64,000 bases of DNA from positions 149,233 to 213,232 of the forward strand of contig JAUVNS010000009.1 of assembly GCA_030599585.1 (NCBI GenBank). The letters run 5' to 3'. The position numbers and the translations under genes are program-made. This document shows positions 32,875-53,608 of this stretch, piece by piece; the stretch's first letter is position 1, and the number at the start of each line of letters is the position of its first letter. Origin of the DNA: Promethearchaeota archaeon (GTDB lineage: Archaea; Asgardarchaeota; Lokiarchaeia; Sigyniarchaeales; SOKP01). The notes under the pieces are model-generated. The model had not been told where the DNA came from. It searched no databases and saw only the letters and a list, made by a program, of their open reading frames with translations.

Positions 32875-33663
32875 ATGTCAAATTGTCCTCGAATCAGCAG
32901 AATATGTGAAAATCATTCAACAATAATCCTAGATACAAATACACTTATTCATTATATGAAATATCTTTCTACAACAAAATACGAGGAAAGAAATTTTAGA
33001 GAGATTCTAAATGATTTTAGTCAATTGATTAGATTAATAAGTAATCAGTGTTCTTATGGAAGGTTATTTGCATCAGAATTAGTTTTAAATAGAGAATATA
33101 AAGGTACTTTTATTTATGAAGTTCGTTTTTTAAATAATTTAAGTAGAACCTATCAAAGGAGATTTACTGATTTGATAGAAACTAACTTAAAAATCCGTAG
33201 AATTCAACAAGACGAGTTAAGCGATTTAAGACCAATTGCTAATAATTTTTCTAGTCAGAGACATCTCTCACCCATCGACAATAGAGACTTATCACTATTA
33301 ATTGGAGCTTTAGAAGAAATAAATGAACATCCAAATTGGAGATTCTTAATTGTCACTGGTGATGATAGCTTTCGAAAGTTTGTTTCTTATGTTAAGGCTC
33401 AAAACCAAATAATTCTAGCTGGAACTACATTTAATACCTCTAACATTAATGGAGTCATTTTTCTAACCTATTTAACCCATTTATTTAAATGCTGTCAATA
33501 TAATGAACTGAAAGAATTTAGGATTGATATATTAATGAGAGAAATTTTTGGTAAAGAAGAACGAGTACAAAAGAGAAAATTAATAGAGTATAACAAATGG
33601 ATCTTTGAGGTTTATGGACCTGCTTTGCTTGAAAAACAATCTATTGGAGTGTGCACCAATTAA
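32875..33663 (+). CDS. PIN-domain-like ribonuclease
   Basis: IILDTN, E in VLNRE, D..D in IDNRDLSLL, IVTGDD..R: the PIN acidic tetrad. Confidence 0.7.
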   Translation: MSNCPRISRICENHSTIILDTNTLIHYMKYLSTTKYEERNFREILNDFSQLIRLISNQCSYGRLFASELVLNREYKGTFIYEVRFLNNLSRTYQRRFTDLIETNLKIRRIQQDELSDLRPIANNFSSQRHLSPIDNRDLSLLIGALEEINEHPNWRFLIVTGDDSFRKFVSYVKAQNQIILAGTTFNTSNINGVIFLTYLTHLFKCCQYNELKEFRIDILMREIFGKEERVQKRKLIEYNKWIFEVYGPALLEKQSIGVCTN

Positions 33664-33664
33664 A

Positions 33665-34423
33665 ATGAAGGAAAATCAAAAAGAATTCCCCGACGACTTG
33701 TTAAAAATTGAAGGTAAATTTGTTAATGATTATGATAAAATGAATTTATTTTTAGAATTTTTTGAAAAAATTAAAGAAATAATTTTTAAAAGACCAGAAA
33801 TCAGAATACAAGAAGTTGATTTTAAAACAAATTTGCCTGAGACGTCAAAAATGCTGCCTTTTACTTATAGCTTAGAAATTAATCAAAAACAATACCTACT
33901 TATAATTAATGATAATTCTCATCCTGTAATTACTAGAGAGGAATTGGAAGATTATCAAAATATTTTTACAATAAGTAAAAGTCAAGATGGTATTATTATT
34001 GTTTGGAATGATGAGAGATTATCCTCCATCAAAATATATAAAGATAATATTTATAGGCCCTTTCAAGATATAGTAGAGGATTTTGAAAATAAAATAGAAC
34101 CTTTAGAAACTAAGATTGTAAATGAGATTCATCTACGAAAACGTTTTATAACAGCTATCAAGGATCAATTAGAAGAAATTAAAATAGAAGAGGTTCCAGA
34201 TCCAGAGAAATCTTTTAAAAACGAATTACAAAATTCCTTTGATTATTTTCAAAATCGTCGGTTTAACGAACCAAAAAGGAAAATAATGCAGAATTTGATA
34301 TTTGATGATATTGCTTCTATAATTAAACTATTTTCTGAATACAATTCAGAGAAAATTGAAGAAAAACAACTTAGAGATAGACTTATAAAGATTATAATGG
34401 GAGAGGATGTAAAGATTGATTAA
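33665..34423 (+). CDS. Hypothetical protein, middle gene of the PIN-X-SMC operon
   Basis: ATG 1 bp after the PIN stop (preferred to TTG at 33605); overlaps the SMC gene by 8 bp. Confidence 0.75.
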   Translation: MKENQKEFPDDLLKIEGKFVNDYDKMNLFLEFFEKIKEIIFKRPEIRIQEVDFKTNLPETSKMLPFTYSLEINQKQYLLIINDNSHPVITREELEDYQNIFTISKSQDGIIIVWNDERLSSIKIYKDNIYRPFQDIVEDFENKIEPLETKIVNEIHLRKRFITAIKDQLEEIKIEEVPDPEKSFKNELQNSFDYFQNRRFNEPKRKIMQNLIFDDIASIIKLFSEYNSEKIEEKQLRDRLIKIIMGEDVKID

Positions 34424-36317
34424 TAAGCTTAGTATAAAGAATTGGAAATGCCATTCCGAATTGGATTTAAAATTTAAAAAGGGTGTTAATTTTATTATAG
34501 GTTATAACGGAATTGGAAAAACTTCTATTCTTGAAGCTATTGTTTTTAGTTTTGTTGGAAGAGTAAGAGGCAAGCAAAAAAAGCAGCTAAGAAAAATAGG
34601 AAGTGATGATGATACTCAAATATTACTTGAATTTACGCATGAAGAAAGAAAACATGAGATTAAAAGAGATTTTAATGGAAAGGCTTCAAATAATCTCAAA
34701 ATAGACGATCCTATTGAGGAATATAGTTCTGATGAGATTCTGGAACATATTCTCCAAATTTATAAAGTTAACCGAGCATTTTTTGAAAATATTTTCTATT
34801 CTCCTGAGGGAGAGATGTATGATTTTTTAAAATTAGATCAGAAAAATTTTGTCGAATTTTTGCAAAATTTAGTTGGTATCGGAAAAATAAATGAATTTAA
34901 GAACGTAGTGAATGATCTGAATAAACTTTACGATACGAAGAGGAAAGAAACTCAGAATTATCTTAAAGTTTTTAGAAAATTTGAAATTTCTGAAGAATTA
35001 GGGGACAAAATAGATATAAACCAAGATCTCAAGATTATAATAAAAAAATTAAGTGTAAATAATGAAATTACTCGAAATTTAAATAATGAATTGTCAAATT
35101 TAGGAAAGGAAAATGAGAACTTATACAGAGAAAACTACGATTACAGTAAAAAGCTTGAAGAATTAAAAGATATTTTCAGTAAAGAAAAGGATACTTTTTC
35201 AAAATTGGATTTAAAAGAATTTAGTCTCAAAGAGATACTTAATAATTTAAATATTTTTTATAATAGAGACAGGGGCCTAAAATCTAATCTAAAAAATTAT
35301 CGGGATTCTATAAAAGCGACCGAGGATTTAATTTCAGAAAAGAAAGCTAGTAAGAATGAGAAAACTAGGGTTGAAGTAATAATTAATAAATTAAAACATA
35401 ATTACGAGGAAGAAACACAAGTTTCTTGCCCACTCTGCAGAAAAAATCTAGAAAAAAAAGATTATATACAGATTTATAAAAACATTAATTTAGAAATTGA
35501 AGAATTAGAAAAATGGATTATGAAAAAACAAATTGAAGTTAAAAATTTAAGAAACCAGAGGCAGCAAACAAAGAGATCATGTCAAATTAATCAGAAAATA
35601 ATTAGATTAATAGAATCCATTCAAAATTTTGATAGGGATACAATTAAAGAAATGGATCAAAAGAATGTAAATCTTAATGAAAAAATTAATAGAATTGACC
35701 AAGAACTCAATATTTTAAATAATCAAAAGAGGGACCTTGAAAATAAAGAGAAGGCACTAAATCAAAGGCTTAGTGAGATTAAAGCTGCTGAAAGTATAAA
35801 AAACCAATTACAATATAAAGAACAACACCATAAAAATATCAAAGGATCATTGATTTGTGATATTATTAATGATGCTTTGAGCAGAGTTATGAAAGACCAA
35901 AGAAATTTTAACTTGGACGAAATTATAAGAGGGATTCAAAAGATCTGGAAAATATTTTTTCCCTATGAGGATCGAGAACTATTATTCGATGATAAATATT
36001 TACCTTATTTCGAAAAGGGAGGAGAAACTATTACATTTAATAATGCAAGTGCCGGAGAAAAGATGATTCTATTAATACTCATAAAAATAGCTCTTGCAAG
36101 AAAATATACAGCAATTCCATTTCTAATCTTTGATGAACCCTTAGAACACCTTAATTATGAAAACCGGATAAATATAATAAATTATCTAATAGATATATGC
36201 AGAAAAGGTCTTGTAAAACAACTTATTATCACTACTTTTGAAGAGTCTCTTACACGCCGATTTAGGAAAATGGAGGAAGTTAATGTGATATCATTACCAA
36301 GTTATTTAAAATATTAG
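34416..36317 (+). CDS. Rad50/SbcC-like SMC ATPase with Zn hook
   Basis: GYNGIGKTS Walker A, coiled coils, CPLC hook, ASAGEK signature, LIFDEP.EHL Walker B/D-loop. Confidence 0.9.
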   Translation: MINKLSIKNWKCHSELDLKFKKGVNFIIGYNGIGKTSILEAIVFSFVGRVRGKQKKQLRKIGSDDDTQILLEFTHEERKHEIKRDFNGKASNNLKIDDPIEEYSSDEILEHILQIYKVNRAFFENIFYSPEGEMYDFLKLDQKNFVEFLQNLVGIGKINEFKNVVNDLNKLYDTKRKETQNYLKVFRKFEISEELGDKIDINQDLKIIIKKLSVNNEITRNLNNELSNLGKENENLYRENYDYSKKLEELKDIFSKEKDTFSKLDLKEFSLKEILNNLNIFYNRDRGLKSNLKNYRDSIKATEDLISEKKASKNEKTRVEVIINKLKHNYEEETQVSCPLCRKNLEKKDYIQIYKNINLEIEELEKWIMKKQIEVKNLRNQRQQTKRSCQINQKIIRLIESIQNFDRDTIKEMDQKNVNLNEKINRIDQELNILNNQKRDLENKEKALNQRLSEIKAAESIKNQLQYKEQHHKNIKGSLICDIINDALSRVMKDQRNFNLDEIIRGIQKIWKIFFPYEDRELLFDDKYLPYFEKGGETITFNNASAGEKMILLILIKIALARKYTAIPFLIFDEPLEHLNYENRINIINYLIDICRKGLVKQLIITTFEESLTRRFRKMEEVNVISLPSYLKY

Positions 36318-36813: not shown

Positions 36814-37752
36814 TTAGGATTTGAACAAATTAGAAAAGTTTTTCAACATTAATTTTAGTTCTTCTCTACTAATTTCATAATATATTTTATGTTTCAGACG
36901 ATTATACTTAAATTTAATGCTCCTTAAGAGTTTTACCTCATTCTTATCCATTAAACCAGCAATCTCTGCTCCTCTAATAAGATCGAAAGAAGGAGGTGTA
37001 CTACTCATTCCTAATTTATGTAGCAGCCAGAGTTCTATTATCCTTCCTAAGCTAAGTAATCCTGCTTCTGGGCATTGTTCCGAAATATCTTTTGTTTTGT
37101 CGAGCTGATCTTGTAAGTAATTTGGTTTGAGAATAAATTTCGGGGGTTTATGGAAAATTTCTTCCATACATATTTGTATCTCTATCTCCAATTTATTCCA
37201 TAGGAAATTAAACTGATTTTGTATTTGTCGTATCGCATCATTACAAATCCATTCTTCTATTTCCGATTCATCTTTTGTTTCTAAGATAACTTGCTCTAAC
37301 TTTCTATCCCTTCGGGAATAACTAATAGTTATACCTTCTTTATTATCTTCTATGATATAATCTCCATAAACCTCATCTGTACTCCACACATCTTCTTCTA
37401 ATAGAAAAATTATGGATTTCTTAGATATTCTCCTTTCATTAGTTTTCAATAACGGATAAAATGTATTATCAAACCAATAGGAATACTTATTAAAAAAATT
37501 CCAAATGTTCTGTAAATGGTCTCTTAATTCAACTAGTAAGTTTTTTGGCCATTGATATTTAGGATTCTTAAATCGAGGTTTCCCTACTTTAAAGTTATCT
37601 TTTATCCTTTCATTATAATCCATTTCTCTAATCTCGGGGATTTCAAGAAGTTGACCATGCAGCTTTTTATGTTTTTCTAGGAGAGTTTCCCCTTCCGATT
37701 TTAAATCCAAGGTAATCCTCTTAAATGACTTATCTGTATTATAATGATTCAC
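36814..37752 (-). CDS. Protein with C-terminal HEPN/DUF4145-like domain
   Basis: AGLLSLGRIIELWL…GLMD…LRSIKFKYNRLKH, a HEPN-like helical pattern with a variant (K/Y)NxxxH motif. Confidence 0.6.
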   Translation of the reverse strand: MNHYNTDKSFKRITLDLKSEGETLLEKHKKLHGQLLEIPEIREMDYNERIKDNFKVGKPRFKNPKYQWPKNLLVELRDHLQNIWNFFNKYSYWFDNTFYPLLKTNERRISKKSIIFLLEEDVWSTDEVYGDYIIEDNKEGITISYSRRDRKLEQVILETKDESEIEEWICNDAIRQIQNQFNFLWNKLEIEIQICMEEIFHKPPKFILKPNYLQDQLDKTKDISEQCPEAGLLSLGRIIELWLLHKLGMSSTPPSFDLIRGAEIAGLMDKNEVKLLRSIKFKYNRLKHKIYYEISREELKLMLKNFSNLFKS

Positions 37753-38122
37753 TATATCTTCGTGTATTTATCTGTGTTCTATATTCTGTTTCAGTAAGCA
37801 ATCTTAAATCACACTTAATTTCTTCCTTCCATATTTTTATTACATTCATGCTACTTCCTTTATCAGCATTAACTTTTAAAATTGTTTTCAATTTATCTAT
37901 CACTTCAGTATAAACCTTTTGTTTAGACGAATTTCCAAATATCCAAAAAATTACATCAAGATCACTCTTATCTTTGTGTTCTCCTGTTGTTCGAGAGCCC
38001 CATCTTGCAACACCCCTGACATTATATCCCGAATTAGTATAGAGAAAATTTTTTAGATTTTTATAAAAAGCGGAATACCTTTGTTCTTCTTCTCTTCTTA
38101 TAGACATAAATTCACCTTTCAT
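37739..38122 (-). CDS. Minimal Pol-beta-family nucleotidyltransferase
   Basis: WGSRTTG…SDLDVIF plus a third Asp in KCDLRL; overlaps the HEPN gene by 14 bp. Confidence 0.85.
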   Translation of the reverse strand: MKGEFMSIRREEEQRYSAFYKNLKNFLYTNSGYNVRGVARWGSRTTGEHKDKSDLDVIFWIFGNSSKQKVYTEVIDKLKTILKVNADKGSSMNVIKIWKEEIKCDLRLLTETEYRTQINTRRYSESL

Positions 38123-41599: not shown

Positions 41600-44500
41600 T
41601 TACAATTTTATAATTTTTATTTTAAACATATTTTTATTTAGAATGAACATAGGAGTAAATTTAAAAAATTCATTTTGGTATTCTTTTGGAAATTGTTCTT
41701 GAAAATAAGTTTTGAATTCCTTCTTAAATTTATCCGATATTTGAATATATAATTCATCTGCATTCAAATCAATTACATGAAATAATGCGAGTGGAATTGT
41801 ATCAAGATGTTCTTTAAATCTTACCCTTTCATATGCTAGATTAATTTTGTAATAAAATTCTAAGATATCGACATTCTCCTCAAAATTTAATTCAAGGTCT
41901 AACCTTAGACTAAAATCTAAATCTAAATTGTCTCCAATAAAAAAACCACGCTCTTTTATAAAACTGATTATATGTTTTATAAGATGCTTATTCTCTATGT
42001 CAAGTTTGGCTCTAATTTGACCAACTTTTTTTTGTATTATGGAGTTAATCTCTGTTTTTATAGAGTCATAGATAAAACATTCTATACTCGAATCTTCTGG
42101 TTTCTCCTTAGTAAAAACTTCAAACTCATGAACCTTTTGCTTATATTTTGAATGTAAGATATTAAAAATACAGTTTAGAGCATATGTGCGACCTTCTATA
42201 CGGAGTTCTTTAACTTCTTTTAGTTTATTAAAAAGACTGCTTTGTAGTCTTTTTATCCAAAATTTATATATTTCAATGTTGTATTTACGGCATATTTCTT
42301 CAAACTCAGAAAAAAGTTCATTGTAATATATCAAGTTCCTAAAAGAGTGGAAAGGAAAGTGAAAATCTTCCCAGTTTCGATAAATTTCATGGATATCTTC
42401 TGAGTCACTATTCTTTATACTTTGTAGGAATGATCTTTCTTCATTAAGTAATTCATCGAGCACATATTTTTGGAGAAGAGAAATTTTTATGAAATAAAGT
42501 TCAGCTTTAATTTCCGAAGATACCAAGATTGGTTTTTTTTCCCGCATACTTTTAATTTCATAGCGAAAGATGTTTTTTGGAGAATTAAAAGACTGATTCA
42601 CAGCATTAAGATAGTAATAAATTATTTTGTATTTTTTAAGATTTCTAAATTCGGGAGAATACTGGAAACTTTTTCCTTCTGGAAAATTCTCTTCTAACTC
42701 TTTTTGGATATCTGTTAAATCAAACAGTTTTGTTAGACCAATATAATAGTATACAAAACTTAAAATATCTATTAAAGGATATTTTGACCTTAAATTTAAT
42801 TGTTGGATTTTTCTAAAAAAGATTATAACCTCTCTAAAAATTTGGTCAAGATTATCAAAATCTTGGTTAAGAAATTTCTTAATTATACATCTCCTAAAAC
42901 ACTCAGACTTTAAGAACCATATTCTTATTAAAGTCTCATAAAATTTCTCGGTTAGCATAAAATTATGATAAATTATAGTATAATCCTTTTCATCGAAAGG
43001 TTTGCGGAGAATTCTTAAATCTAATTTAGTTTTATTGATTCCAATAATGGATTTCTTAAAATCATTATTTTCCAGGTATTCTATATAAGGTCTCAGACCA
43101 TCATTAATGGAGTCATATTTCAATGTTATTGAACGTATGATGAATTCCAAATCATCATAAATCGTATAATAATTAGTTAAATCGAATACTCTTAATAAAT
43201 CCTTTAACTTGTTAAGAGTGTTATTAATAATTTGAAGAGTCTCTCTGTACATCCCCGCCTCCAGACTACTTTCGATATAGTGAAAATTAACATTTATAAA
43301 ATCTTTCTTCTTAGAATAGATTTCTTTAAAATAAGAGGTAGCGTTTGTACAGTCTTCTAGCTTTTGGTAACAACGGCCAATATAATACCATACACCATAA
43401 TATAGCTGATCATCGTTAAATAAATCTTTACTTGGATTTTTAGAAATTTTTATTAAAAGAGCTTTTGCCTTTTCGTATTTTTGATTATTATAAAAATTTA
43501 GTGCTTGCTGAATTTGTATTTTCTCTTTCTGGAAAATTTCATCTTTTTGTTCTGTTGATTCAATTAATTGTTTATCTGAAGAGATCTTTTGAGACATAAA
43601 ACCTTCCCTATATCTGTACTCTTTACCACCTCCTTGCCGCGTGCTTTCCCTTGATTCTAAATAATAAATCAAGTCCCATTGCTTAAAATAATTATAAATT
43701 GTCTGTATTGATCTTCCTTTTAGTTTATTCTTATACTCTTTAAAAAAGCTATTAATTGTTCTAAATCCCTCATTATCTTTAATAATGTTCTCCTCTTGCC
43801 TATCTTTTTGTAGCGCATCCTTAAAAAGGAGAGCAACATCTTCAACTGTAAGATCATTTTCTTTATATTCATTTACTTTTACTTTTTCCTCAATTTTTTC
43901 TTTCTCTAGCTCTAGCTCCTTTTCTTCAATTTTCAAAAATAATTCTTTTCCTTTTTCTATAAAAGTTTGGACCTCAAGAGAAAGACTTTTATACCATTCA
44001 TTAGGATTGAATATAGGAGTATTACTATGTTTATTTATAACTAATTCTACTTGATTAAGTTTAGACACTAAATCTTCAAATAAAAACAGAGGATTTTCAT
44101 TAATGATTTCAATTCCCGTTGTAATGAAAAAGTGAGGTAAGAATTTAACCCATTCATTATTGATATTGGAAGAATATTTTTCTTCCCTATATTCTTGCGT
44201 ATCAAAAAGGGAGAGCCTCTTAAAATTTAATAATATTAATTTGTTTAAAATTCTGTAGCAAAGAATAGAGCTACTATAATTCTCGTTAATAATACTTATA
44301 TCTAAAGTGTCAAAATATTCAGGCTCATCAATCCAAAATGAACAAATAATAAGAAGACCATAAGTTCCTGTTGTATATTCTTTTAATTTTAAATGTAAAT
44401 TGATATGAAGTAAATTATTTTCATAAATTAGAAAATTTAGATATTTTCCATAACGACCGTTAAAATAATCTTTAATCTTTGGTTCTTTAAACTCTAAAAA

Positions 44501-44866
44501 TCTTAAAATTTCGTTCCGAGACAAAGCCCCTGCTTCGTATCTTATCAACATACTTAGAGGAAAATTTTCTTTTATGAATTTTTTGGTCTCTTCTTCATTT
44601 TTAATATTTTGAAAAGTTTCAAGGTTTCTTCTCCAAGTAGTATAGCTTTTTTTAATGAATTTTTCAGCTAAAATATTATAGTCCTCACTATTTCCTAACA
44701 AATAAGACCATTGTCTTTTAATTTCATCTCCTAATTTCTCCTCATCAATTAATACTTGAACGTTATCCATAATTTTTTCTCTATCTTTATAGATATCATC
44801 TATAGAAAATAAAAAAAATAAAATCTGTTTAATAGGGTCATATTTATTGTGATAAATTTTTTCCAT
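41600..44866 (-). CDS. Large TPR-containing protein with central HTH-like segment
   Basis: 1088 aa; TPR-like ALNFYNNQKYEKAKALL and YYIGRCYQKLEDCTNATSYF; SIQTIYNYF…GGGKEYRY wHTH-like. Confidence 0.75.
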   Translation of the reverse strand: MEKIYHNKYDPIKQILFFLFSIDDIYKDREKIMDNVQVLIDEEKLGDEIKRQWSYLLGNSEDYNILAEKFIKKSYTTWRRNLETFQNIKNEEETKKFIKENFPLSMLIRYEAGALSRNEILRFLEFKEPKIKDYFNGRYGKYLNFLIYENNLLHINLHLKLKEYTTGTYGLLIICSFWIDEPEYFDTLDISIINENYSSSILCYRILNKLILLNFKRLSLFDTQEYREEKYSSNINNEWVKFLPHFFITTGIEIINENPLFLFEDLVSKLNQVELVINKHSNTPIFNPNEWYKSLSLEVQTFIEKGKELFLKIEEKELELEKEKIEEKVKVNEYKENDLTVEDVALLFKDALQKDRQEENIIKDNEGFRTINSFFKEYKNKLKGRSIQTIYNYFKQWDLIYYLESRESTRQGGGKEYRYREGFMSQKISSDKQLIESTEQKDEIFQKEKIQIQQALNFYNNQKYEKAKALLIKISKNPSKDLFNDDQLYYGVWYYIGRCYQKLEDCTNATSYFKEIYSKKKDFINVNFHYIESSLEAGMYRETLQIINNTLNKLKDLLRVFDLTNYYTIYDDLEFIIRSITLKYDSINDGLRPYIEYLENNDFKKSIIGINKTKLDLRILRKPFDEKDYTIIYHNFMLTEKFYETLIRIWFLKSECFRRCIIKKFLNQDFDNLDQIFREVIIFFRKIQQLNLRSKYPLIDILSFVYYYIGLTKLFDLTDIQKELEENFPEGKSFQYSPEFRNLKKYKIIYYYLNAVNQSFNSPKNIFRYEIKSMREKKPILVSSEIKAELYFIKISLLQKYVLDELLNEERSFLQSIKNSDSEDIHEIYRNWEDFHFPFHSFRNLIYYNELFSEFEEICRKYNIEIYKFWIKRLQSSLFNKLKEVKELRIEGRTYALNCIFNILHSKYKQKVHEFEVFTKEKPEDSSIECFIYDSIKTEINSIIQKKVGQIRAKLDIENKHLIKHIISFIKERGFFIGDNLDLDFSLRLDLELNFEENVDILEFYYKINLAYERVRFKEHLDTIPLALFHVIDLNADELYIQISDKFKKEFKTYFQEQFPKEYQNEFFKFTPMFILNKNMFKIKIIKL

Positions 44867-44907
44867 ATTATTTACCTTCCCTCTATATCTTACCTTTTGG
44901 TTTTTAT

Positions 44908-45330
44908 TTATTCAAGTATTAATTCTCCATTTATAAACATAAATGTCTTTCTATTTTCCCTTATCCACTCCTTTCCATAATCATCATAATGATCTTTACA
45001 AAGATCATTTGTTAAGAACTTGCATTTAAAAGCTTTAGCAATGTTTAAGAAAAATTTATCCGCTTTCCTACCCGCAGGTGCTTGATAGACAATCCCTTCT
45101 TCTACAAGTTCCTCATATTCTTGTTCATAATCCATTGAATGTCTGAATGGAGCATCTAATATTAGGTAAGGATCATAATTCTCTTCGAGCAAGGTGCTAT
45201 ACACTTTTCTAATATTTTTTACCTTAAAATTTCCTTCTTCATCACGATCTCTAAATAAAATATTTGCTAAATCAACAGTAATTTTCTCACGTAGAATGGA
45301 TTTGGATATAAAACTTTCTTTTTCAATCAT
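44908..45330 (-). CDS. NYN/Zc3h12a-like (PIN-fold) ribonuclease
   Basis: VDLANI, LDA, APAGRKADKFFL, LTNDL.KD; AGGTGA RBS favours the ATG at 45330. Confidence 0.8.
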   Translation of the reverse strand: MIEKESFISKSILREKITVDLANILFRDRDEEGNFKVKNIRKVYSTLLEENYDPYLILDAPFRHSMDYEQEYEELVEEGIVYQAPAGRKADKFFLNIAKAFKCKFLTNDLCKDHYDDYGKEWIRENRKTFMFINGELILE

Positions 45331-45566
45331 AATGATCACCTTTTTAGGTTTCTACTCTTAATATAGTTTAGTTTATATTTAAAATAATTTGTTTCGAAGT
45401 TTCAAGAAACATTTTTATCATTATTTTTAAACTTTAACCCTAAAAAGATCTAAGAAAATGGAATAAAAAATATGAAAATCAAAAAAAATAAAGTATTGAG
45501 AGTTTTATTCTCAAATATTGTTTGAGTGCTTACTCAAGCTATTACTAAAATTTTTCTGTAACACAT

Positions 45567-48500
45567 CTAAATTATCTTTTTTTTTTTTTCAGTAATTTTT
45601 TTACTAATGAATTCGATAAATTTACTAGGTGGAGTATTTGTTCCAAAAACCTCTACTATTCCTTCCATCTTTATTGCTCGTATATTTTCTTCTGGAATAA
45701 GACCACCAGCAACCACTAATACATCTTTTAATTTCTTTTCTCTATAGATTTTCATTATTTTGGGGATAATATCAATCTGTGATTCTGAAGCTATTAAAAT
45801 TCCAATTACATCAACATGCCTTTGGATAGCTGTATCTATTATCTGTATTGGTGTTTGTATTTGGTTTGAGTAAATAGCTTCCATACTTGCATCTTTTAAA
45901 GCTTCAATTACTACTTTTACACCTCTTTCATCTCTGGACGGTCCAGGTCTTATTATTAAAACCTGTGTCTTATCTTTAAATACATTTTTAATATCAAGAT
46001 AAATTTTTACATTAGGAAAAGATCTTAGAAGATTAGCATCAGTTATATCTGTATTTCGAATATCAAGTATTTCTAGGTTTTTACAAACTTTTAATATTTC
46101 CAGCACATTCATAATTCTTACATTTGTTCCTGCAAGGCGAAGAACCTGGAGATTTGGGCAATTCTCCAAGACTCTGATATCAAAAACTCTTGTCCCACTG
46201 AGATCAAGAATTTGGAGTTTAGCGCAAAACTTTAATGCATTTATATTAGACACTCCTGTATTATTAAGGTAGAGTTCTTGAAGGTTTTTGCAAGATTCCA
46301 ATGAACTAATATCAGATACATTTGTCCAGCCAAGGTCAAGGGTTTGTAGGCTCTTACAATCCTCCAAAATTTTAAAATCTTCCACATCTGTGTCTTCTAG
46401 GCGAAGAACCTGGAGATTATTTAAATGCTTTAAAACATTAAGATTAATAATCTTCGTTCTATTAAGAGAGAGTTTTTGAAGATCTTTAAAAGATGATAGA
46501 ACTCTAAACATAGATATCTTAGTCCTATTAAGATAGAGTTCTTGAAGGTTTTTACAAGGGTATAAAGAACTAATATCAGATACTTTTGTCCAATTGAGAT
46601 TAAGTACTTGGAGATTTTTACATGTCTTTAATGTTCTAACATTTTTTACAGGTATTCCCTCAAGGCTGAGAGATCTAAGCTTATTACAATCTTTTAAAAT
46701 TTCACATGAATCTTTAATAGATATCCACTTCCCAATTATTCGTGGACTACTATGAACAATAATCATCTCGCAAATCTCTTCAAGAATCGACCATTTCTTC
46801 CAATCAGTTTTCCACAATTTTTTTAGTGTATTTCCCCACCAAGCAATATGATGCACACTAACTGGCACATTGGGTCCTGATGCTCTCCCTTCACTAGGTA
46901 ATAGCAATATTTCACTCGAATCTTTTGGAGATTTACGCCATAAACTTATTATTTCAACTAGAAAATAAATAAATTCTTCTTTTTTACCTTCTTCTACAAA
47001 ATTCCACAATTTTCCTCCTGTCTCTTTTAACCGATCCCATTTCAACCTTTTTTTTCTATATAGCCATAACAACCCAGAATACAGATCTTCAGGACTTAAA
47101 CCTTTTTCTCCACTTACAGCATATCCCCAACTAAATAGTGTTAATAAAATTACTAAATCAGGAGTTTGTTCAATCGAGAGTTGCTTTTTAATTAAATTCT
47201 GAAGATTAACTATAACAGAAACAAAACTCCAGGGACTTTCAGATTTTTGGGCTAATGATAAATTGTCTATGTAAATAAATTTCTTTAAAGTAGTATTACT
47301 TAATCCTTTAAACCATTTAGTAAAACGGTCTACCCATTCAGTTTCCCAATAAGACCGATATTCATTTACTGTTATAATATGAATCTCTCTTGGCCATGGT
47401 CTGCTCTTTTCAGTTTCTGATGTTAATGTCTGTAAGAGTATAATGCTACTATGATTATTTCTAGCTATCAATATTGCTTTATTCCAAAAAAAATTATCCC
47501 TTTTAAGGTGATAATCATCCATTATCACCAAAATATTACTATTATGCAATAATTCAATAATTATTTCATAATCTTGATCATCAATCAATGTGAAGGGATC
47601 TGGAAAATAATATACTTTTTTATTCTTTAATGCAAATGCTAAAGCAACCCAGAGTACGAGACGGCTTTTTCCCCAACCAGAAGGTGCTGCTATTCCAATA
47701 GCGAAGTGCTCTTCAAGAGTACCTATAATTTTGTTGAAAAGGGGAACTGGAGGAGGTACACTAATTAGAGCATAGTCTAAATAACGTGATTGAAATAATC
47801 CTTTTGTACCCATTCTAATACTACTAAAAGCATTTTGCAGCCATTTAGATCCTTTAACAATCTTTTCAAGTTTAATTAATACAGGTAACCATCGCTTTGA
47901 CTCTATTAAAAAGTTATAAAAATTTTCATAATTAGAAAAGCCTATTTTCTTATTCCATTTTCCCTTCCAGTTATTAGACCACTTCAAAAGAAAGAGTGCG
48001 TGAAACTCCCTTTCCTTCAATGTTTTTAGCTTTTTTCTTTCAAAACTCTTTTTTTTTATACCGAAAGGTAATTCTATTGGCTCTCGTTTTATTCTATCCC
48101 ATTTTACTGATTTTATATAAGTTATAGGATAAAGAATCCCTGTCTCTAGATCTATATTATAAACATTAAATTGGCGAGGTATATAATCAATACCTACTTT
48201 TCTTTCAGTTTTTTTTGCAAATAAAGATCCTGCAGATATGCATTTAATTTTGCAAATTTCATCAGCCATGGAATCTGGATGATGAATATCACCTACAAGC
48301 GCTAAGACAACATTTCTTCTTCTAAGTTCATCTAACGCATGATCGTGATTATATGAAATTTCGTGTAATCTATGATGACATAACATTATTTTCGGTAAAT
48401 TCTCATCTTTTGAAAAATAATCATTAATTTTATTAAAGTAATTTTTAGAAATATTAACATTCTTACGAGATATTTTATTGAAAATATTTAGGCAACTATT

Positions 48501-48977
48501 AAATAAAAGAAGCTCAATCTTTTTATTCGTCAATTTATCATAAAAAATAGTTGAATCGAAAATCGAAAAAGTTTTGTTAATTATAAATTTGCTTTCAAAT
48601 CCATTTTCTTTACAAAAATTTACAAAATTATTAAATCTCTTTTCATTTTTATACCATTGAACATCGTGATTTCCAGGTAGTATTATCCATCTATTTTTAG
48701 GGATTGGTTTTAAACCTTTAAGGAAAATTTCTTCGATAATTGGTACAAATTCTTTTGATAAATTGTCATACTCTTCTTTTGACCCTGTACTGGCTAAATC
48801 TCCGGTTATTGCTATTATATCTATAGGAGATTTTAAATGAATATTATAAAATTCATTTTTTATGTCCATCAATATATCTTTATATTTTTCTTCCCAATTT
48901 TCAGAAAAACTGTCTTGTAAGTCAGGTTTTATTCCAAATTTACCTTCTTGAATATCAGAAAGATGTAATATTCGCAT
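45567..48977 (-). CDS. NLR-like protein: metallophosphoesterase - P-loop NTPase - 10 LRRs - degenerate B12-binding domain
   Basis: HLSDIQ, TGDL, PGNHD, HH, GDIH; APSGWGKSRL and LVIMDDYH; ten LRRs of about 22 aa; C-terminal domain co-linear with the methylmalonyl-CoA mutase cobalamin-binding subunit. Start at MRILHLSD preferred to 49031. Confidence 0.88.
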   Translation of the reverse strand: MRILHLSDIQEGKFGIKPDLQDSFSENWEEKYKDILMDIKNEFYNIHLKSPIDIIAITGDLASTGSKEEYDNLSKEFVPIIEEIFLKGLKPIPKNRWIILPGNHDVQWYKNEKRFNNFVNFCKENGFESKFIINKTFSIFDSTIFYDKLTNKKIELLLFNSCLNIFNKISRKNVNISKNYFNKINDYFSKDENLPKIMLCHHRLHEISYNHDHALDELRRRNVVLALVGDIHHPDSMADEICKIKCISAGSLFAKKTERKVGIDYIPRQFNVYNIDLETGILYPITYIKSVKWDRIKREPIELPFGIKKKSFERKKLKTLKEREFHALFLLKWSNNWKGKWNKKIGFSNYENFYNFLIESKRWLPVLIKLEKIVKGSKWLQNAFSSIRMGTKGLFQSRYLDYALISVPPPVPLFNKIIGTLEEHFAIGIAAPSGWGKSRLVLWVALAFALKNKKVYYFPDPFTLIDDQDYEIIIELLHNSNILVIMDDYHLKRDNFFWNKAILIARNNHSSIILLQTLTSETEKSRPWPREIHIITVNEYRSYWETEWVDRFTKWFKGLSNTTLKKFIYIDNLSLAQKSESPWSFVSVIVNLQNLIKKQLSIEQTPDLVILLTLFSWGYAVSGEKGLSPEDLYSGLLWLYRKKRLKWDRLKETGGKLWNFVEEGKKEEFIYFLVEIISLWRKSPKDSSEILLLPSEGRASGPNVPVSVHHIAWWGNTLKKLWKTDWKKWSILEEICEMIIVHSSPRIIGKWISIKDSCEILKDCNKLRSLSLEGIPVKNVRTLKTCKNLQVLNLNWTKVSDISSLYPCKNLQELYLNRTKISMFRVLSSFKDLQKLSLNRTKIINLNVLKHLNNLQVLRLEDTDVEDFKILEDCKSLQTLDLGWTNVSDISSLESCKNLQELYLNNTGVSNINALKFCAKLQILDLSGTRVFDIRVLENCPNLQVLRLAGTNVRIMNVLEILKVCKNLEILDIRNTDITDANLLRSFPNVKIYLDIKNVFKDKTQVLIIRPGPSRDERGVKVVIEALKDASMEAIYSNQIQTPIQIIDTAIQRHVDVIGILIASESQIDIIPKIMKIYREKKLKDVLVVAGGLIPEENIRAIKMEGIVEVFGTNTPPSKFIEFISKKITEKKKKII

Positions 48978-49548
48978 TATATTTTCTCTCTTTAATTTTA
49001 TGTATAAATTTCTTCCAGATATCCTTTGCATGAAATGGGCTTCCTCTTCGGAAACTCTTTACTTGAAGAATTTTTATCTTCACTTGTTATTTATTGAATT
49101 TTTTATCCATTTCTAACATAAAAATAATATCATCATTAAAATATCTATCAAGATTTATTTAGATAACCAAAAAAAAATACCATCATCCTAAAGTTACTAA
49201 ATGTAAATTAAATTCTAATGCACTTTTAACTTTTGATTGAAATAAATTGGATATTTATACAAGAAGATTATTATAATTTATTAGATATTACTCCTAATTG
49301 GAATTATCCCAATTCCAGATAATTGATGATATATAATCAATAGTTGGCTTAGGTCTCACTGAAGTACACCAGGAAACACTTCGGTCAGAAAAATTGTCCC
49401 ACAGGAAGTGGATGATCTTTGGAGTTAAAGGAGTGTCTTAAATATAATTTATGATAGATAATTAGTAATAATAAATTAGTTTAGAACTAAGGAGAAATCA
49501 TACTTATCATAGTTTTGGGGAATTTCAAATGAAAAAGCATTAATCTTC

Positions 49549-53008: not shown

Positions 53009-53608
53009 GTGGCAGGCATAACGGAAAATAAAGACCAATTATTCATCAATAAACCGCCAAAAATGATTAATAGAGTGTTTATATTTTGGGACCACGCAAA
53101 CACTTTTCACAACTTACAAGAGTTAAGCGCACGAATCGATTACGATTTAGTCAAACTAAGGTTAGGTCGGAACTATCACGTAGTCGCTTCGATCATGTAC
53201 GTAGGTAAGCCGAGCTACGTATTCCCTAAAAAAGAGAAGTTTTTCAAAGCACTGGAGCACATTGGCTGGCTGATCTCTGAAAAACCGCTGAAAATCCTCC
53301 CCTCAGGTAAACTATCGCAGGAGGGAGTAGACGAGAAAATGTTCTTAGACATCTATGATTTAGCCAAGGACGACGCCTACGAAAAAGCGATAATCGTGAG
53401 CGGAGATAAGGTATTTGTCGAGGTAATCAGAGAACTAAAGAAAGCCAGCATTGAAGTAGACGTCTGGAGCTTCAGAAAGTCGCTTTCTCGGGCGTTGATC
53501 TGGGAAGCGGGTAAAGATCACATTTTCTTTCTCGACGACATCTTAGAAGAGATCAAACTCGGTCAGAAAATTAAAAAATTACCCATCGGTCAAGGATTAA
53601 ATTACTAA
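53009..53608 (+). CDS. NYN domain (LabA/DUF88) protein
   Basis: IFWDHAN, QEGVD, IVSGD..F, G/V.VWSF, F..LD motifs. Confidence 0.85.
   Translation: MAGITENKDQLFINKPPKMINRVFIFWDHANTFHNLQELSARIDYDLVKLRLGRNYHVVASIMYVGKPSYVFPKKEKFFKALEHIGWLISEKPLKILPSGKLSQEGVDEKMFLDIYDLAKDDAYEKAIIVSGDKVFVEVIRELKKASIEVDVWSFRKSLSRALIWEAGKDHIFFLDDILEEIKLGQKIKKLPIGQGLNY

Follow-up and report, generated by a model that had tools for sequence, protein, structure and literature searches.

Intracellular immunity has repeatedly been built on receptors of the STAND/NLR type, and it is at issue which of their parts predate eukaryotes. Of interest in this respect is a gene at positions 45567–48977 (minus strand) of a 64,000-nucleotide stretch of Promethearchaeota archaeon DNA (contig JAUVNS010000009.1 of assembly GCA_030599585.1; this whole stretch is referred to as the window). 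The gene joins a calcineurin-like metallophosphoesterase, a P-loop NTPase, helical domains, ten leucine-rich repeats (LRRs) and a B12-binding-type domain in one polypeptide. An earlier note, made from the letters of the window, read the protein as an LRR-type innate immune receptor in a lineage related to eukaryotes, an interpretation that our analysis supports in part. We consider it probable that the gene encodes a single-chain cytoplasmic conflict receptor of STAND type (NLR/Avs-like), belonging to a small family restricted to Asgard archaea. The antiviral role, the ligand, the oligomerisation and the substrate are what we infer, the immune role from architecture and neighbourhood alone. 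Effector–STAND–LRR designs in prokaryotes and the metallophosphatase–STAND pairing (DS-8) are already known; the novelty lies in a STAND clade that is confined to Asgard archaea and regularly joined to LRRs, with TIR, protease or phosphoesterase effectors and, occasionally, a ligand-dead B12-like domain. No description of this Asgard NTPase–LRR family was found in the searchable literature.

The central P-loop NTPase

The Walker motifs pointed out in the earlier note were located by parsing. Walker A (APSGWGKS) occupies residues 449–456 (positions 47664–47687) and Walker B, read as LVIMDD(YH) and containing the VIMDD noted before, residues 501–506 (47514–47531); these numbers, like those of all Pfam and NCBIfam matches below, refer to the full open frame of 1154 codons. 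Alignments of 20 family members (A1) and of the 12 closest members (A2) share a set of invariants: a motif before the P-loop that ends in VPPP, GWGKSR, the second Asp of hhhhDD followed by xH, a Thr on strand 4, SPW.FV, and the His of HHxAWW. The Gly, Lys and Ser of Walker A and the second Asp of Walker B are thus the same across the family, as is expected of the STAND superfamily, whose P-loop NTPases have a Walker A of the form GxxxxGK[ST] and a Walker B of the form hhhhDD. The first invariant motif, W..AF.SIR..KGL......D....VPPP, closes the helical region that precedes the nucleotide-binding domain (NBD) and stands directly before the first NBD helix. The NBD itself has a predicted five-stranded core with the invariant Thr on strand 4, and the domains that follow it carry SPW.FV and HHxAWW, whose His (residue 710 of the 1136-residue protein) is possibly the counterpart of the MHD His of NLRs.

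In an AlphaFold2 model built on A1 (pLDDT 88.6, pTM 0.87), a bundle of helices at the N-terminus is followed by a P-loop core of five strands and by a long helical region, which bears out the helical stretch first seen in the translation. We compared the model with 48,161 PDB chains in an exhaustive VIA search. The top matches were the Avs5/AVAST5 SIR2-STAND filaments 9nc9 (Z 12.9–13.4 over 295–304 residues, with 9nc9_D at Z 12.9 and 295 aligned) and 9jap (9jap_A, Z 12.1 over 286 residues); the alignments with both cover model residues 8–455. Classical AAA+ proteins reached Z 11–12 over a core of ~190 residues only. The order of NBD, helical and winged-helix domains, with solved STAND proteins as nearest neighbours, is therefore seen in the predicted model at a margin over AAA+ of ~1–1.5 Z units. 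In the ESM Atlas a SIR2-STAND cluster came first (TM 0.54, 339 residues), followed by two nSTAND3 clusters. A complex prediction for two copies of the NTPase module (A2) with ATP returned a score of 0.00, which gives no verdict and is evidence neither way.

The comparison with NACHT, NB-ARC and nSTAND families that the earlier note had proposed yielded a weak signal for nSTAND5 and nSTAND3 and none for the other two. The Pfam family nSTAND_NTPase5 matches residues 445–516 weakly, below the cut-off (E = 0.008). Similar weak nSTAND5 matches occur in 17 of the 20 family members and nSTAND3 matches in 12 of the 20; one family member (P0050) exceeds the nSTAND3 gathering score (28.3 compared to 27.2 bits). 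With hhalign, the A2 profile is weakly linked to the nSTAND5-type NTPase of protein P0007 (E = 2e-4); the same profile gave no signal against the nSTAND1-TIR-LRR protein P0040 and a probability of 0.6% against the plant NB-ARC protein P0021. Neither NACHT (PF05729) nor NB-ARC (PF00931) matches the protein studied here (P0001). For the 20 members, the listing at E ≤ 0.1 gives 25 of 31 families, and both are absent from these 25. The NTPase is neither a NACHT nor an NB-ARC domain.

Membership in the STAND class, previously read from the architecture alone, thereby gains moderate independent support from the Avs5 and nSTAND3 structural neighbours and from the exchange of modules described below. 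Judging from the alignments and the predicted model, we most probably have here a divergent STAND NTPase, with Avs5, nSTAND3 and nSTAND5 as its nearest groups. The assignment is well supported rather than proven, because the margin over generic AAA+ proteins is modest.

Table 1. Features of the gene and the related stand-alone subunits; positions are those of the window unless another contig of the genome (C50, C22) is named
Feature	Position	Strand	Basis
Whole gene	45567..48977	(-)	1136 aa from ATG at 48977; stop 45567-45569
Calcineurin-like metallophosphoesterase, presumed effector	48072..48977	(-)	Pfam, NCBIfam, alignment A3, predicted model
Helical pre-NBD region	47757..48044	(-)	Alignments A1, A2; model secondary structure
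P-loop nucleotide-binding domain (NBD)	47370..47756	(-)	Alignments, model, motif parsing
Helical and winged-helix-like domains after NBD	46707..47369	(-)	A2 invariants; Avs5 structural alignments reach through region
Ten leucine-rich repeats, 22 residues each, presumed sensor	45996..46688	(-)	Pfam, repeat parsing
B12-binding-like domain, acyl-CoA-mutase small-subunit (methylmalonyl-CoA-mutase) type	45582..45971	(-)	TIGR00640, PF02310, 4r3u_C
Stand-alone mutase B12-binding small subunits	C50:109499-109900; C22:163867-164259		DxHxxG intact

Family distribution and exchange of modules

An exhaustive HMMER search with the NTPase region (residues 320–780) recovered 23 relatives among 1.84 billion representative proteins. 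The family profile found members in 13 of 400 genomes of the phylum, in 3 of 134 genomes of the same taxonomic family and in 1 of 41 other genomes of the same genus. Every member with a named taxon is an Asgard archaeon (Hodarchaeota, Hermodarchaeota, Heimdallarchaeota or Promethearchaeota). A locus search with the 12-row alignment gave one Hermodarchaeota locus and two bacterial matches confined to the P-loop; the latter were disregarded as family members.

The members keep the NTPase–LRR core while their termini vary. At the N-terminus we find TIR (P0047, P0063), a trypsin-like protease (Trypsin_2; P0051, P0055), Metallophos (P0001 and P0005), transmembrane helices (P0006) or a winged helix-turn-helix (wHTH; P0008, P0060). 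Extra C-terminal TPRs are present in P0005, P0047 and P0051, and the C-terminal B12-like domain recurs in P0006. A variable N-terminal effector combined with a C-terminal repeat sensor is the modularity of STAND proteins. The mosaic is also visible in sequence identity to P0005, which is 69% in the effector compared to 38–48% in the NTPase and LRR regions.

The TIR–NTPase–LRR order, which is that of plant TNLs, is found in P0047, P0063 and P0066. P0063 adds a DUF7347 wHTH, and P0066 is a partial match, labelled a TIR-domain protein, from a Promethearchaeota metagenome-assembled genome (MAG).

The N-terminal phosphoesterase

The calcineurin-like motifs with their unusual DIQ and GDIH variants, recognised in the earlier note, are confirmed by direct parsing (SDIQ, GD, GNHD, HH, GDIH) and by a Pfam Metallophos match to residues 19–252 (E = 3e-13; 50.9 bits compared to a cut-off of 21.5). 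Fold and motifs place the domain in the calcineurin-like superfamily, whose five motifs are DxH, GD, GNH[DE], H and GHxH, with DxQ and GDxH as variants of the first and last. The His of motif I is replaced by Gln and the first His of motif V by Asp; the remaining ligands are kept. In an alignment of 15 homologues with identities down to 31% (A3), the variant set HxSDIQ/GD/GNHD/HH/GDxH is invariant. Since the unusual ligands are the same in 15 of 15 sequences, they indicate selection on an active site that is unusual but presumably working, and not decay.

The predicted model of the domain (pLDDT 90.5) has 170 PDB matches at E ≤ 1e-3, the nearest folds being, in order, B. subtilis YydB, GpdQ, SMPDL3A/B, purple acid phosphatases and Rv0805. 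The NCBIfam model DS9_1 of an anti-phage phosphoesterase (NF053862) matches in part (216 residues, E = 6e-13), at 48.5 bits and far short of the equivalog threshold of 420 for DS-9A/Calcineurin-CE. The same phosphoesterase also occurs on the nSTAND5 backbone of P0007 and at the C-terminus of two large TPR-bearing proteins, P0009 and P0071.

The leucine-rich repeats and the B12-like domain

The ten LRRs counted earlier are recovered both by Pfam (LRR_4/LRR_8, residues 777–1009, E = 2e-25) and by repeat parsing, which resolves nine strict repeats and a degenerate first one with the consensus CxxLxxLxLxxTxVxDIxxLxx. Their best PDB sequence matches are Chlorobium Roco, Listeria internalins and PPP1R7/SDS22. 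By sequence, the repeats are of the 22-residue internalin/Roco/SDS22 class, unlike the classes typical of animal and plant NLRs. Asgard genomes are rich in LRR proteins of unassigned function (10.64898/2026.10.28.762692), and for some of these the locus suggests a definite role that can be tested, as the presumed sensor in a STAND family restricted to Asgard archaea.

The terminal add-on domain of the earlier note proves to be B12-binding-like. It passes the cut-offs of PF02310 (residues 1035–1131, E = 5e-10; 39.7 compared to 32.1 bits) and of the mutase C-terminal domain TIGR00640 (95.1 compared to 57.45 bits), and its alignment with 4r3u_C runs from end to end over the C-terminal 130 residues, 4r3u_C being the small subunit HcmB of 2-hydroxyisobutyryl-CoA mutase (E = 3.6e-27). 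The cobalamin ligands are lost. GxDGHDRG, which is GLDGHDRG in 4r3u_C, has become GPSRDERG, and SxLSGxH (SLLSG in 4r3u_C) has become LIASESQ, so that the fused domain has neither the DxHxxG motif with its cobalt-ligating His nor the SxL motif. In P0006 the His is lost in a different way (GLDEPDQG), and SxL is again missing. The genome's two stand-alone mutase B12-binding small subunits, which are 49% identical to each other, retain both motifs. The fused copies are 32–35% identical to canonical subunits and 28% identical to each other. A recent duplication of the genome's own small subunit was considered and rejected, the identity being merely 34–35%. Because the ligands are lost and the fused copies are nearer to canonical subunits than to each other, a cobalamin-independent role appears likely. 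Possibly the domain serves as an extra recognition surface or as an integrated decoy; in the latter case a prokaryotic receptor would have taken up a host domain that no longer binds its ligand, for which this is a candidate.

A possible mechanism

If the protein is a STAND-type conflict receptor, then by analogy with STANDs that have been characterised the LRR solenoid, possibly together with the His-less B12-like domain, would bind a foreign (viral or mobile-element) protein or monitor the state of the host. Binding would free an ADP-locked switch formed by the NBD, helical and winged-helix domains, and ATP at the Walker A/B site would then drive oligomerisation or filament formation. The clustering would switch on the N-terminal phosphoesterase, which may hydrolyse nucleotide-type substrates (dNDP/dNTP, NAD+ or a cyclic nucleotide) and so arrest growth or lead to abortive infection. 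The output that seems most likely is that nucleotides or cofactors are depleted or that a signalling nucleotide is cleaved, because the phosphoesterase is closest to the GpdQ/SMPDL3A/Rv0805 group and to the metallophosphatases of DS-8 and DS-9.

Comparison with known systems

Among validated systems, DS-8 is the nearest analogue in domain logic; among structures, Avs5 comes closest. DS-8, an E. coli metallophosphatase–NACHT protein, is a validated single-protein anti-phage system that needs both domains (DefensePredictor, PMC13092281). DS-8 and DS-9 (a metallophosphatase with a HAD protein) protect E. coli, and both require the phosphatase residues (PMC13092281). Likened here by its published description and not by direct sequence comparison, DS-8 shares with the Asgard protein an N-terminal calcineurin-like metallophosphatase fused to a STAND NTPase in one chain, and its phosphatase is of the SMPDL3A/phosphodiesterase type that is also among the nearest folds here. 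The two differ in that the DS-8 NTPase is a NACHT, of which there is no signal here, whereas the LRR sensor, the B12-like domain, the DxQ/GDxH ligands and the archaeal host are features of the Asgard protein. The metallophosphatase–STAND effector pairing is hereby extended to archaea.

Avs5 (AVAST type 5) is the best structural match over the pre-NBD helices, the NBD and the helical domains (Z 12.1–13.4, 286–304 residues), and it too has an N-terminal nucleotide-metabolising effector. Its sequence identity is only 13–14%, its effector is SIR2 instead of a phosphoesterase, the aligned parts include no Avs5 LRR region, and no PADLOC Avs model matches the Asgard protein. A further system for comparison is the nucleotide-depleting PUA-Calcineurin-CE-HAD system (DS-9). 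Calcineurin-CE converts dNDP to dNMP and also cleaves NAD+ (10.64898/2026.01.15.699771). The partial DS9_1 match connects the two phosphoesterases, both of them calcineurin-like conflict effectors, but the Asgard locus has no PUA sensor and no HAD partner gene, and its score is the low one given above. DS-9A moreover keeps the canonical D-x-H and H-x-H ligands that are altered here; by our own mapping of positions, H209 and H462, the residues mutated in DS-9A (10.64898/2026.01.15.699771), would correspond to the Gln and Asp of the Asgard protein. As to the C-terminal domain, it resembles HcmB (4r3u_C) and methylmalonyl-CoA mutase (1req) by the end-to-end alignment with HcmB and the TIGR00640 score. 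It differs from them in having lost the His and Asp of DxHxxG as well as SxL (the His and SxL also being lost in P0006), and in being fused behind the LRRs of a STAND protein instead of being paired with a mutase catalytic subunit.

Plant TNLs, animal NLRs and the bacterial NACHT–LRR protein bNACHT16 have the same tripartite order of effector, NTPase and LRR, and the conserved His after the NBD may parallel the MHD His. Held against the strict definition of an NLR (NACHT–LRR or NB-ARC–LRR), the Asgard protein has the C-terminal LRRs and lacks the NACHT or NB-ARC domain, and its LRRs are of another class, as described above. The idea that LRR sensors typify plant and animal NLRs was too narrow, with LRR-bearing bacterial STANDs such as bNACHT16 already known (10.1101/2022.07.19.500537). 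NACHT-type NLRs have also been reported in Asgard archaea (10.1101/2023.09.13.557551). The host is indeed from the lineage proposed: two Snf7 proteins and a homologue of actin (442 bits) are encoded in its genome of 4.85 Mb (52 contigs), as fits an Asgard archaeon. What did not hold is a specific link to eukaryotic NLRs. Because NACHT and NB-ARC are absent and the LRRs are of the internalin/Roco/SDS22 type, the likeness is best read as convergence, which is more likely than shared ancestry. TIR–NTPase–LRR and enzyme–NTPase–LRR proteins with no NACHT or NB-ARC ancestry would represent a further independent origin of the "NLR" design, and that origin would fall in the archaeal lineage closest to eukaryotes.

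A bolder version of this idea, to which we give a rather low probability, is that the Asgard STAND clade (Heimdall, Hod, Hermod and Loki lineages) independently converged on the full logic of plant NLRs, with an integrated decoy in this protein and in P0006. A catalytically disabled copy of the host mutase B12 subunit placed after the LRRs would then lure viral factors directed against the host enzyme. The identities of the fused copies (32–35% compared to 28%) would agree with such a bait having been captured twice, on separate occasions.

Alternative explanations

Several observations weigh against a STAND-type conflict receptor. Two canonical metal ligands of the phosphoesterase (motifs I and V) are replaced and catalysis is not assured. 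The residue after the strand-4 Thr is Leu, compared to Lys or Arg in about half of the relatives by our reading of A1. The Pfam STAND matches of P0001 stay below threshold (16–19 bits compared to 34), a Foldseek search of the NTPase model against the PDB gave nothing better than E = 2e-3, and Avs5 exceeds generic AAA+ ATPases by merely about 1–1.5 Z units. No PADLOC model (database version of 2023) matches the protein as such, the sole match being PDC-S10 on the phosphoesterase domain (E = 0.023). P0005, the closest relative over the full length, lies amid housekeeping genes.

The last of these points also speaks for the most probable of the alternatives, namely that the protein is a STAND-type signalling or regulatory switch with no antiviral function. 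Such a switch might respond to some protein or metabolite (perhaps, by way of the C-terminal domain, to a corrinoid or the state of a corrinoid enzyme) and control a phosphodiesterase that turns over cyclic nucleotides or second messengers, or it might act in inter-archaeal conflict or in non-viral cell death. Some STANDs are regulators, among them MalT, whose structure 8bob is among the structural matches; by fold, the phosphoesterase comes closest to phosphodiesterases that act on cyclic nucleotides and glycerophosphodiesters (Rv0805, GpdQ); and B12-like domains are typical of metabolic enzymes and sensors. A corrinoid sensor is difficult to reconcile with the loss of the cobalt-ligating His and of SxL in both fused copies while the genome's stand-alone paralogues keep them. 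As effectors, the interchangeable TIR, trypsin-like protease and transmembrane modules are typical of death or defence. The family is also extremely patchy in its distribution, and defence or mobile-element neighbourhoods (see below) recur. We regard this alternative as unlikely.

Less probable still is that the NTPase is not a STAND at all but a divergent AAA+/ORC-like or other ASCE ATPase joined to an LRR scaffold and a phosphoesterase, and active in ATP-driven remodelling or nucleic-acid processing (for example with an Mre11-like nuclease activity) instead of as a receptor switch. Many AAA+ proteins (ClpB/ClpC, proteasomal Rpt subunits, DnaA) come near the Avs5 scores with Z 11–12, and when the A1 profile was compared with PDB sequences, the matches (helicases, ABC proteins and PH0952) were only marginal. 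The AAA+ matches stop at the NBD of ~190 residues, whereas the STAND matches take in the helical domains as well, for another ~100 residues. In the Atlas the neighbours are clusters of SIR2-STAND and nSTAND3 proteins, nSTAND5 and nSTAND3 provide the sole protein-family signal that recurs across members, and the swapping of effector and repeat modules is a hallmark of STANDs. Mre11/SbcD does appear among the fold matches of the phosphoesterase (E about 1e-6), but it ranks below the phosphodiesterases.

Integrity of the gene

The frame is a single one, as reported earlier, and runs uninterrupted on the minus strand from 49031 to 45567 (1154 codons). Its likely true start is the ATG at 48977, because the homologues P0005 and P0007 begin with the identical MRILHLSDIQEG, the sequence starting at 48977, and because a purine-rich stretch lies just before it. 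The in-frame ATG upstream at 49031 would add 18 residues, which are common to no homologue. The best gene model is thus likely to be 45567–48977, encoding a protein of 1136 residues.

The assembly chimera that the earlier note had considered as a pitfall is not borne out. The Metallophos–NTPase–LRR junctions are also contiguous in P0005 (on a 51 kb ENA contig) and the NTPase–LRR–B12 junctions in P0006, both independent assemblies, and the NTPase–LRR junction is contiguous in about a dozen (>10) further family members. Since each domain junction recurs in independent assemblies, the frame is not an assembly chimera. In its tetranucleotide usage the contig that carries the window (C32) also agrees with the genome as a whole outside it (r = 0.999). 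That the frame is an artefact, a chimera or a decaying pseudogene uniting unrelated pieces, might be suspected from the nature of the genome (a MAG with 8.9% estimated contamination), from the position of the window at the end of its contig and from the non-canonical residues at two catalytic-motif positions and at the B12 ligands, but it is extremely improbable and already effectively refuted by the unbroken frame, the recurring junctions, the variant motifs invariant in 15 homologues and the matching composition.

Genomic neighbourhood

The gene lies in a region of low GC content (~30000–52000, GC 0.25–0.29; 0.28 in the 20-kb stretch 30.8–50.8 kb) compared to 0.326 for the genome, and the window ends where contig C32 ends. 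This composition suggests an accessory island that holds the phosphoesterase–NTPase–LRR gene together with defence-like neighbours. A 633-residue ATPase encoded 9 kb from the gene (34416–36317, plus strand) matches the Lamassu SMC-like protein LmuB of PADLOC over its full length (E = 3e-23); the two genes upstream of it (region 32875–36317, plus strand) have no PADLOC match. Directly downstream of the phosphoesterase–NTPase–LRR gene (41600–45339, minus strand) follow a gene for a 143-residue Zc3h12a/NYN-like RNase (Pfam E = 7e-11) and, 41 bp on, a gene for a 1088-residue protein with no family match except one weak TPR. These two genes may form a separate two-gene unit. A functional tie between them and the putative receptor was rejected, as the P0005 locus has neither and a gap of 227 bp intervenes. 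Because P0005 occurs alone among housekeeping genes, we regard the putative receptor as a single-gene unit.

Two other family members have defence-related or mobile-element genes nearby. P0053 has CBASS-like genes, of the SAVED and SMODS families, 4 kb upstream of it (L013:1027-4037). The trypsin–NTPase–LRR protein P0055, encoded on a Heimdallarchaeota contig (L012:7632-14848), is preceded by a Trypco1 gene, with Tn7-like TnsA/TniB genes just upstream. A second LRR protein, of 1133 residues, comes after P0055 on the same contig.

Two further loci of the window carry domains known to PADLOC. At 36814–38122 (minus strand) an MNT-type nucleotidyltransferase gene (Pfam Polbeta/NTP_transf_2; PADLOC PDC-S09, E = 2e-6) overlaps the start of a gene for a 312-residue protein with no family match, and the two look like a toxin–antitoxin or defence pair. 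A stand-alone NYN-domain protein (53009–53608, plus strand; Pfam E = 8e-18, PADLOC NYN E = 9e-15) is encoded between the low-GC island and a primase-like operon.

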